This document shows positions 7,559-8,525 of a DNA stretch of 37,205 nt, piece after piece. A model generated the notes under the pieces. It was not told the DNA's origin and did no database searches. It saw only the letters and a list, made by a program, of their open reading frames with translations. The stretch lies in the sequence record PP925823.1. One strand, written 5' to 3'. A program made the position numbers and the translations under genes. Within the stretch, counting starts at the first letter, position 1. Every line of letters starts with the position of its first letter. This DNA is from Escherichia phage LMessi.

Positions 7559-7667
7559 AAAAATACCAAAAGTTATTGAACATAGGGAAAGAGTATAGCC
7601 TTGAATAACTTTATGCAATAACTTATCGTATTTGCCACTTAATAACTTTTTGTATAGGCTTATTGGT
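7559..7667. promoter_or_regulatory. divergent immunity promoter/operator region (OR-like)
   Basis: 109-bp AT-rich spacer between the cro-like and cI-like starts carrying four copies of the 8-mer AATAACTT/AAGTTATT (7570-7577 inverted; 7604-7611, 7617-7624, 7641-7648 direct). Confidence 0.5.
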
Positions 7668-8366
7668 ATGAACACATTCTCAGATCGTCTTCAAAAAGCG
7701 ATGGTTGACGCAGGCCTTACGCAGGCAGAATTAGCGATGAAAGTTGGGGTTTCGCAACCAGCTATCTGGCGTCTTGTTGCAGGCAAAACCAACACAACAC
7801 GTAAGTTGGTTGAGATTGCTAATGCGCTGGGTGTGAGCCCTGAATGGCTATCAACTGGAAAAAATCATGTGCCTCATAGACAGGGCTATGTGATAGAGAC
7901 CATGCCCGAAAGGGAGGTAAAGGATAACGCTGGCATATTCAGGGTCGAGGTTCTTGACCTTGCAGTGAGTGCAGGGCCTGGCACGTTCATGCTTTCAGAA
8001 TATGTGGAGGTTTTACACGCTATTGAGTTTACGACTCAACATGCAAAATCCCTTTTCGGGAATCGTAGTGAAGATGTCGTAAAAGTAATGACCGTCAATG
8101 GCGACAGCATGGCCAGCACATTTAATTCCGGTGATCGTGTCTTCGTAGACATTTCCGTCCGACACTTTCTAACGGATGGTGTGTATGTGTTTGTTTTTGG
8201 TAAAACATTTCACCTAAAACGTCTCCAGATGCAGGGAAACAGGCTAGCAGTCTTATCGGATAATCCGGCATATGAGAAATGGTATATCACGGAAGAAAAC
8301 CAAGATGACCTTTACGTGATGGGTAAAGCCATAATGCATGAATCAATCAATTACAATAGGCTCTAA
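7668..8366 (+). CDS. cI: CI-like phage repressor (HTH_XRE N-terminal domain + S24 LexA-like autopeptidase domain)
   Basis: N-terminal HTH (LTQAELAMKVGVSQPAIWRL); C-terminal GDSM motif with a downstream Lys (LKRL) consistent with a Ser-Lys dyad; start taken at ATG 7668 (track ORF begins at an upstream TTG, 7632). Confidence 0.85.
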   Translation: MNTFSDRLQKAMVDAGLTQAELAMKVGVSQPAIWRLVAGKTNTTRKLVEIANALGVSPEWLSTGKNHVPHRQGYVIETMPEREVKDNAGIFRVEVLDLAVSAGPGTFMLSEYVEVLHAIEFTTQHAKSLFGNRSEDVVKVMTVNGDSMASTFNSGDRVFVDISVRHFLTDGVYVFVFGKTFHLKRLQMQGNRLAVLSDNPAYEKWYITEENQDDLYVMGKAIMHESINYNRL

Positions 8367-8387
8367 CCTTCAACACCCCACCTTTTG

Positions 8388-8414
8388 AAGCCGCTTTTAA
8401 GCGGCTTTTTCTTT
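8388..8414 (+). terminator. rho-independent terminator after the repressor gene
   Basis: Hairpin AAGCCGC-TTTTAA-GCGGCTT followed by TTTTTCTTT, 22 nt downstream of the cI-like stop. Confidence 0.6.
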
Positions 8415-8505
8415 GTCTATAGCTGTAAGCTATGCTATTTAATAACAAAATTTAATCAAAAAAATCAATGCATTAAACTAAATCGTAAAAGAAAAATAAG
8501 TTTTG

Positions 8506-8525
8506 TTATTGCAATAAGTTATTGC
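8506..8525. promoter_or_regulatory. OL-like operator candidate (overlapping palindromes sharing the OR half-site)
   Basis: TTATTGCAATAA (8506-8517) overlapping GCAATAAGTTATTGC (8511-8525); contains the AAGTTATTGC 10-mer whose reverse complement occurs in OR at 7615-7624; lies in the AT-rich leader upstream of the first early-left gene. Confidence 0.4.

Follow-up and report, generated by a model that had tools for sequence, protein, structure and literature searches.

In the phages lambda, 434 and P22, the repressor and the Cro protein share operators. The named phage repressors closest to the one considered here, that of Escherichia phage LMessi (sequence record PP925823.1), are the cI proteins of HK639 (62.5% identity over 232 amino acids) and HK022 (41.7% identity). 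The HK022 repressor, a lambdoid repressor of the same family, loops the operator region OL to the operator region OR over ~700 bp (PMC8053113). It also binds cooperatively, and an extra operator outside the canonical OR triplet adds to immunity (Carlson and Little, 1993, as cited in PMC8053113). The HK639 operators are known from annotation and sequence, and a literature search found no binding study of them; on the HK022 and HK639 operators that search provided context only, and it returned no paper on the immunity type of LMessi. The stretch analyzed, referred to as the window, comprises 37,205 nucleotides of LMessi, a lambda-like temperate siphophage, and the element under study is an 8-mer, AATAACTT, that recurs on both sides of its cI-like repressor gene.

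With a probability of about 0.8, positions 7331-8568 of the window are a lambda-like immunity module in which AATAACTT is the core of a set of operators bound by the cI-like repressor, and probably by the Cro-like protein as well, the operator unit most likely being a 14-bp dyad. The cro-like gene (7331-7558, minus strand), taken from the open reading frame list, encodes 75 amino acids with a helix-turn-helix (HTH) of the YdaS/P22_Cro type (Pfam YdaS_toxin 6.7e-19, P22_Cro 1.6e-7; phrog_35, transcriptional repressor). It is divergent from the cI-like gene (7668-8366, plus strand), from which it is separated by a 109-bp gap (7559-7667), and the 232-residue product of the latter has an N-terminal HTH_3 domain (Pfam 4.3e-10) and a C-terminal Peptidase_S24 domain (2.2e-16), matches phrog_4 (1.8e-55) and shows a GDSM serine motif, an LKR lysine motif and AG within VSAGPG. 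An intrinsic terminator (8387-8413, plus strand; stem 8387-8408 followed by a T run) comes after cI, and beyond the OL-like region lies the first leftward early gene (8569-9000, plus strand), which encodes an HTH-only protein of 143 amino acids, HTH-143 (Pfam HTH_19/Phage_CI_repr).

The likeness to lambda extends to the divergent cro and cI genes, to a repressor composed of an HTH and a LexA-like S24 domain, and to dyad sites in the divergent region that are repeated before the leftward early operon on the cI strand. Two of the OR sites lie 24 bp apart, one between predicted back-to-back -35 hexamers and one in the spacer of the predicted promoter PRM, the cI mRNA is probably leaderless, and the leftward operon has int at its distal end. 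In contrast to lambda, the recognition sequence is unrelated and its likely unit is 14 bp rather than 17 bp, the OR1 and OL1 positions hold no good site, there is an extra site in the cro leader, and the OR2-like and OL sites each have an orphan half-site at a distance of 13 bp. In addition, OR and OL are separated by ~900 bp in the window and by 2.3 kb in lambda, there is no rexAB between cI and PL, and the first PL gene encodes an HTH protein, not N. HK022 resembles the window in having OL close to OR, while its operator sequence and N-terminal domain differ, and its extra site, going by the citing account, lies 300 bp downstream of OR and not in the cro leader.

A repeated core at both ends of the cI gene

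The 8-mer AATAACTT/AAGTTATT occurs six times in the window, where 1.00 +/- 0.99 copies are expected and none of 100 shuffles reached six, so that the enrichment anticipated by the first-pass annotation was borne out by a scan of the whole window. Five of the six copies fall in two short non-coding stretches. A motif scan placed four of them within the OR-like divergent control region (7559-7667), as had been claimed, three on the plus strand (7604-7611, 7617-7624 and 7641-7648) and one on the minus strand (7570-7577), and the fifth (8516-8523, minus strand) lies in the OL-like region within palindromes. The sixth (11112-11119) was considered as an operator and is taken as a chance copy, as it lies in coding sequence without an extended match. 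When the 8-mers of both intergenic stretches are counted without bias, AAGTTATT ranks first and TGCAATAA second. The two overlapping perfect palindromes noticed earlier near the early-left gene, TTATTGCAATAA (8506-8517) and GCAATAAGTTATTGC (8511-8525), are both present, and the perfect palindrome extends to 17 bp as TGCAATAAGTTATTGCA (8510-8526), which includes the 8-mer copy 8516-8523 and an orphan GTTAT (8518-8522). Their placement needed correction, since they begin ~95 bp after the end of the terminator and ~140 bp beyond the cI stop codon, where the first-pass annotation had put them about 150 bp past the terminator. They also lie not in a leader but 43-63 bp upstream of the ATG at 8569, overlapping the -35 and spacer of the predicted leftward promoter PL, and most likely in a promoter. 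When sites are scored against the 17-mer, the probability of finding at least five with scores of at least 11/16 is 2e-4 in Markov simulations with the local AT-rich composition, although these scores depend on a consensus taken from one of the scored sites (8510-8526).

The sites are conserved where their surroundings are not. In 25 loci with cI proteins 87-100% identical, which provide nine distinct OR sequences (the window included) and 18 distinct OL sequences from few independent lineages, five of 65 site positions vary compared with 69 of 200 in the remainder of the two regions between genes (Fisher p = 7e-6). L133 (cI 87%) and L134 (cI 78%), two additional loci from metagenomes, agree, and L134, the most diverged relative, keeps all the dyads. 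The AT-rich 8413-8491 diverges freely and 8492-8529 is almost invariant. The exact 17-mer of the OL palindrome, TTGCAATAAGTTATTGC, has 27 copies in 2.9 million IMG/VR contigs, of which 24 lie ~145 bp downstream of this type of cI and the remaining three are inside coding regions of unrelated phages. By megablast, nothing close to the immunity segment was found among GenBank phages or complete E. coli genomes, where the flanking genes alone matched; identical or near-identical segments are present in many contigs from IMG/VR and gut metagenomes and in an Enterobacter intestinihominis genome.

The position of the OL palindrome, between the predicted -35 and -10 of the promoter in front of HTH-143, is a classic one for an autorepressor, and HTH-143 is itself a Phage_CI_repr/HTH_19 protein. 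The palindrome might thus be an autoregulatory operator of HTH-143 with an incidental resemblance to OR. This is very improbable, and the candidate was discarded on the ground that the block persists where the HTH-143 gene is replaced: L023, L038/L133 and L134 have unrelated, non-HTH first leftward genes and keep 8492-8529 almost unchanged. Conversely, the phage CharmingMan keeps the leader (8537-8573), while the block in front of that leader is another one. The LMessi block is always found together with this cI/cro pair, its core recurs four times at OR, and the recognition helix of HTH-143, TTETINNWE, is unlike those of cI and Cro. Because the block survives the gene swap and CharmingMan separates leader from block, the operator block belongs to the cI/cro module and not to HTH-143, and the HTH-143 gene is, on these comparisons, not required for its retention.

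The same OR/OL arrangement is repeated with other motifs in heteroimmune relatives. Five of these, CharmingMan, SaltyDalty (PP925825), HK639 and the loci L042 and L006, have their own motif at both OR and OL, as does L040 less clearly. CharmingMan has ATTACC-N4-GGTAAT (three at OR and two at OL), SaltyDalty has CAATAGC/ATAGCAAT in both regions, HK639 has ATAAC-N4-GTTAT and L042 ATAGC-N4-GCTAT (three at OR and three at OL in each), and L006 and L040 have ATACG/ATAGC dyads in both regions, with a different repeat (GCAAGCA) just after cI in L040. CharmingMan and SaltyDalty share with the window the gene order of cro, cI, terminator, operators and common leader, while their immunity modules (cI, cro and operators) are entirely different. 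By comparison with these relatives, an OR/OL logic in the window is well supported. The lambda-type arrangement proposed in the first-pass annotation thus holds in outline, given the conservation, the linkage to cI, the persistence through gene swaps and the heteroimmune relatives, and it fails in the details of the unit, the copies and the leader.

The least probable of the readings weighed is that the copies are not protein sites at all and represent a by-product of AT-rich promoters, an old duplication of a promoter segment or a hairpin in leader RNA. Both regions are rich in A and T, a 30-nt segment at PR has 80% identity to one at PL, and the RNA of 8490-8570 folds modestly better than shuffles (z = -2.4). 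However, the simulations above used the local composition, the sites are conserved while adjoining AT-rich DNA diverges, heteroimmune relatives swap the motif at both places together, and the hairpin lacks a T run and lies upstream of the predicted transcription start. An Rfam search for an RNA element gave no match at the gathering threshold or at E<=1.

Two further observations concern relatives. Of the three CharmingMan OR operators, two (L001 3617-3675) abut, at ~15 bp centre to centre, and close packing of operators therefore recurs in this phage group with a different specificity. In L040 the repeat after the cI terminator (~3760-3860), AATGCAAGCA/TGCTTGCA, was not seen in the L040 OR, and dyads of the cI type lie further downstream (5193-5231), which suggests that a second regulator acts after the L040 cI.

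Length and register of the operator unit

Position homology with the HK639 clade indicates that the unit is most likely an even-centred dyad of 14 bp, ATA(A/C)N-W4-NKTAT. In this register AATAACTT takes in one flanking base, then ATAAC as the 5-bp half-site, then two bases of the spacer, which is all A/T. Sharing of a half-site by OR and OL stands, although the half-site proper is ATAAC and not the 8-mer put forward originally. Nor are the five copies of one kind: three lie in full 14-bp dyads, and two (7604-7611 and 8516-8523) are orphan half-sites beside predicted -35 hexamers. The 14-mer pattern ATA-N8-TAT occurs 11 times in the window compared with 3.4 expected, and three such dyads lie within the 109 bp of the OR-like region together with the four cores.

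The dyad at 7642-7655, ATAAC-TTTT-TGTAT, is the equivalent of OR3. With 12 bp between its end and the cI ATG, it takes up the predicted PRM spacer and is invariant in all relatives while 7636-7641 vary. The equivalent of OR2 is ATAAC-TTAT-CGTAT (7618-7631), with 36 bp from its end to the ATG. It occupies the interval between the -35 hexamers predicted for PR and PRM and changes once in one contig (T7629C, L021). A third dyad, ATACC-AAAA-GTTAT (7563-7576), belongs to the cro leader, where it spans ~+9 to +22 as counted from the predicted PR start; 91 bp separate its end from the cI ATG. It is invariant in all same-immunity relatives, while there is variation in its flanks, at 7559/7560 and 7578/7579. 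The outermost two of the OR dyads (7563-7576 and the 7641-7655 site) form a 93% inverted repeat, each 37 bp from 7609. At the OR1 position of the relatives there is a degenerate dyad, ATAGC-CTTG-AATAA (7595-7608, by position homology), which has 59 bp between its end and the cI ATG and partly coincides with the predicted PR -10; the change G7598A turns its left half into ATAAC in L034-L039 and L134. The orphan half-site in the predicted PR spacer (8-mer 7604-7611, plus strand; ATAAC 7605-7609) sits 13 bp promoter-proximal of the OR2-like dyad and is altered in L038/L133 (C7609G and T7610A, still ATAAG) and in L039 (T7606C). The region at OL contains a single full 14-bp dyad, ATAAG-TTTT-GTTAT (8496-8509), where HK639 and L042 carry three each. 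It abuts the predicted PL -35, falls just outside both palindromes of the first-pass annotation and changes once in one contig (G8505A, L032).

Four arguments favor the 14-bp register for the repressor. The first is that the closest relatives, HK639, L042, L006 and L040, whose repressors have the recognition-helix start (S/A-Q-P) of the window cI, use ATAnn-N4-nnTAT dyads. The second is that the distances of the dyads from the cI ATG match: the OR dyads of HK639 and L042 end 11, 35 and 60 bp before it, in L006 and L040 only the first and third of these OR positions hold dyads with exact outer triplets, and the clade overall has ends at 11-12, 35 and 60-61 bp, compared with 12 and 36 bp in the window. 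The third is that variation among relatives respects the borders of the 14-mers, which show only the two single-contig changes given above, whereas 7578, 7579, 7638, 7639, 7641, 8524 and 8526 vary inside the 17-mers described below. The fourth is that the OL dyad improves in L134, where it becomes the canonical ATAAC-TTTT-GTTAT.

HK639 itself resembles the window further in that its repressor is homologous throughout, including the HTH, with a recognition helix that starts SQPAI in both, and that the half-site ATAAC and 14-bp dyads of the ATAAC-N4-GTTAT type are found in both. The OR3-like dyads end 11 bp (HK639) and 12 bp (window) and the OR2-like dyads 35 and 36 bp before the cI ATG, and GTTAT|TGC(C/A)A links the OL dyad to the PL -35 in both phages. 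The differences are that HK639 has perfect dyads, three at OR and three at OL, 21-25 bp apart, while in the window the right halves are NGTAT/CTTAT, the spacers are all A/T and the OR1 and OL1 positions are degenerate. In addition, helix positions 6-7 are WR in the window (SQPAIWR) and QK in HK639 (SQPAIQK), and the HK639 OL lies 1.9 kb after cI, with genes between and putL RNA.

An odd-centred, lambda-sized unit of 17 bp, TGCAATAA-N-TTATTGCA, with TGCAATAA as the half-site and with proteins and logic unchanged, is an unlikely but substantial alternative, and in it AATAACTT spans the dyad centre. Its sites would be 8510-8526 (16/16), 7614-7630 (14/16), 7564-7580 and 7601-7617 (12/16 each) and 7638-7654 (11/16). 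The OL site is then a perfect 17-bp palindrome, only four positions in 37 kb score at least 12/16 and all are among these proposed sites, CAATAANTTATTG with up to two mismatches matches 7566, 7616, 7640 and 8512 only, and there is a 14-nt exact inverted match between 7613-7626 and 8514-8527. However, the consensus came from one site and the scores are thus not independent, the variation in relatives falls within the 17-mers yet outside the 14-mers, sites 7601-7617 and 7614-7630 share 4 bp, and the related S/A-Q-P repressors all use even-centred 14-bp dyads with outer ATA...TAT at matching distances from the ATG.

It is also conceivable, although rather improbable, that two registers are interleaved, with cI on 14-bp dyads (ATAAS-W4-STTAT) and the Cro-like protein, or a second mode of cI, on 17-bp TGCAATAA-N-TTATTGCA sites that are perfect only at PL. 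At both lytic promoters of this lineage the canonical promoter-proximal operators, OR1 and OL1, would then have given way in parallel to a composite around the -35, in which a full site and a half-site are offset by 13 bp. If true, this composite would be a variant of switch architecture without a described counterpart in lambda, 434, P22 or HK022.

Several points weigh against operators built on the 14-bp dyad as set out above. Two of the five 8-mer copies (7604-7611 and 8516-8523) are left as orphans in that register, the 17-bp palindrome has seven symmetric positions beyond what it needs, and ATAAC-N4-GTTAT with up to two mismatches is enriched only ~2-fold over the whole window (21 compared with 9.5 expected). 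The orphan and full sites are only 13 bp apart centre to centre, which would be hard for two dimers to occupy simultaneously, and there is no good dyad at the OR1 position (7595-7608) or the OL1 position (8521-8534), unlike in the relatives. As regards the promoters, a strict sigma-70 scan of 7300-9100 gave none at its threshold, the candidates come from a relaxed scan and score only 7-8/12, and the predicted PR needs a 15-bp spacer.

Some other sequences were noted in the course of this comparison. The degenerate OR1-position dyad 7595-7608 (ATAGCCTTGAATAA) has its first 10 bases in common with the OR2 operator of heteroimmune L042 (ATAGCCTTGACTAT, L042 2940-2953) and may be a relic of an operator with another specificity. 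Two ATA-N8-TAT 14-mers in the cI coding sequence, ATAGACAGGGCTAT (7876-7889) and ATAATCCGGCATAT (8260-8273), have GC-rich spacers and are probably due to chance. Weak sites at 8456-8472, 8469-8485 and 8442-8455 (10-11/16 or two mismatches) are not conserved in L038, L039 and L134 and were dropped. The sequence AATCAATGCATTA (8463-8475) conforms to the core consensus of IHF, WATCAANNNNTTR, and has an A tract in front of it; the predicted PL start is ~75 bp further downstream. Relatives differ at 8470 and 8471, both within the N4 part. The sequence could be a binding site for IHF, of which there is an example upstream of lambda pL, or a chance match.

Predicted promoters and the proposed switch

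The predicted PR (to cro, minus strand) has a -35 TTGCAT (7618->7613), a 15-bp spacer and a -10 TATACT (7597->7592), which becomes TATAAT in L038, L039 and L133, with a start at ~7585. The predicted PRM (to cI, plus strand) has a -35 TTGCCA (7632-7637), 17 bp and a -10 TAGGCT (7655-7660), and a -10-like hexamer is found at the same position in HK639 and L042. Its predicted start is at or near the A of the cI ATG, hence a cI mRNA that is probably leaderless. The best candidate of the relaxed scan is the predicted PL-like promoter (plus strand), with a -35 TTGCAA (8509-8514), 17 bp, a -10 TAAAGT (8532-8537) and a start at ~8544, and CharmingMan has TATATT at the same place as this -10 relative to the shared leader. 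That leader, with the Shine-Dalgarno sequence of the first leftward early gene (8537-8568, plus strand; GGAG 8557-8560), is 97% identical to that of CharmingMan over 8537-8573, and because it is conserved even in this heteroimmune phage it marks where the immunity module ends on the right. Over 30 nt the PR and PL segments are inverted copies of each other with TTGCAT and TTGCAA at the matching place and, read promoter-wise, both consist of a full dyad, then T|TGCA(A/T), then WAAGTTATT. Each of the two predicted lytic promoters thus has an orphan ATAAC/GTTAT half-site in its spacer, 13 bp from a full dyad. We infer these assignments of PR, PRM and PL from the sequence.

As to what would bind, cI and Cro share 35% identity in their HTH regions, and their recognition helices, VSQPAIWR and VTQPAVFR, have V(S/T)QPA(I/V)(W/F)R in common. 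Because the two helices are nearly the same, operators shared by cI and Cro are plausible. In the proposed mechanism the module is ordered cro (minus strand), OR, cI (plus strand), terminator and OL/PL, and cI, probably together with the Cro-like protein, would bind the repeated sites. The dyad 7618-7631 would act like OR2 from its place between the -35 hexamers of PR and PRM, and the dyad 7642-7655, in the PRM spacer, would act like OR3 and bring about negative autoregulation, while the cro-leader dyad 7563-7576 would serve as a roadblock. The dyad 8496-8509 and the palindrome 8510-8526 would together cover the -35 and spacer of the leftward early promoter, from which the early operon would run through the genes of HTH-143 and of an S24-only protein (S24-130) to int. 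In a lysogen the occupied sites would shut both lytic promoters, and RecA-stimulated self-cleavage of the S24 domain would relieve the repression. Looping between OR and OL, which are ~880-900 bp apart in the window, is possible in that the homologous HK022 repressor loops over ~700 bp. Binder identity, order of occupancy, activation of PRM and OR-OL looping are parts of this scheme that we infer.

Neighboring genes and significance

CharmingMan (PP925830) matches the window at ~92% DNA identity over 63% of the first 25 kb, and the tail genes match HK542, mEp390 and HK106. On the minus strand beside the cro-like gene are primase/helicase and replication genes. A DUF4222 gene (7123-7329, minus strand; Pfam 1e-12) lies directly after cro, overlapping its end, in the place of lambda's cII. 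Further genes on the plus strand after HTH-143 include the S24-only gene (9061-9453), small genes and the integrase gene (11483-12730).

The S24-only protein has 130 amino acids, is 33% identical to the C-terminal domain of the phage's own cI and matches phrog_6201 ('CI-like repressor', a 121-amino-acid family) at 9.5e-39. It is 88-100% conserved in most same-immunity loci and 57-60% identical in L103 and L114, is kept in L023, where the HTH gene is replaced, and has no tblastn match in L038. With HTH-143 as its partner the pair looks like a split repressor, or the S24-only protein could be a decoy of the C-terminal domain that interferes with cI oligomerization. HTH-143 itself is a mosaic (window 8569-9000; L097 2133-2555). 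SaltyDalty and Fraca encode non-HTH proteins at the corresponding place, and the last 60 amino acids of HTH-143 have ~50% identity to the C-terminus of these, in which its N-terminal HTH has no counterpart.

Taken at the level of sequence comparison, the LMessi module is an ordinary lambda-style switch with a DNA specificity not described before, and its closest named relative, HK639, shares the half-site ATAAC in part. The unusual points, which are the poor equivalents of OR1 and OL1, the operator in the cro leader, the orphan half-sites and the 17-bp PL palindrome that is off the register of the clade, are variations of detail, and the general picture of lambdoid switches is unchanged. What is gained is a testable predicted operator sequence for an uncharacterized immunity type that is frequent among prophages of the Enterobacter type and in gut metagenomes, together with a repressor-operator pair that could serve as an orthogonal part in synthetic biology. 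Within one repressor clade, helix positions 6-7 can also be set beside the half-site, these being QK and ATAAC in HK639, WK and ATAGC in L042, WR and ATACG in L006 and L040, and WR and ATAAC or ATACN in LMessi, which provides a data point linking recognition residues to half-site bases.

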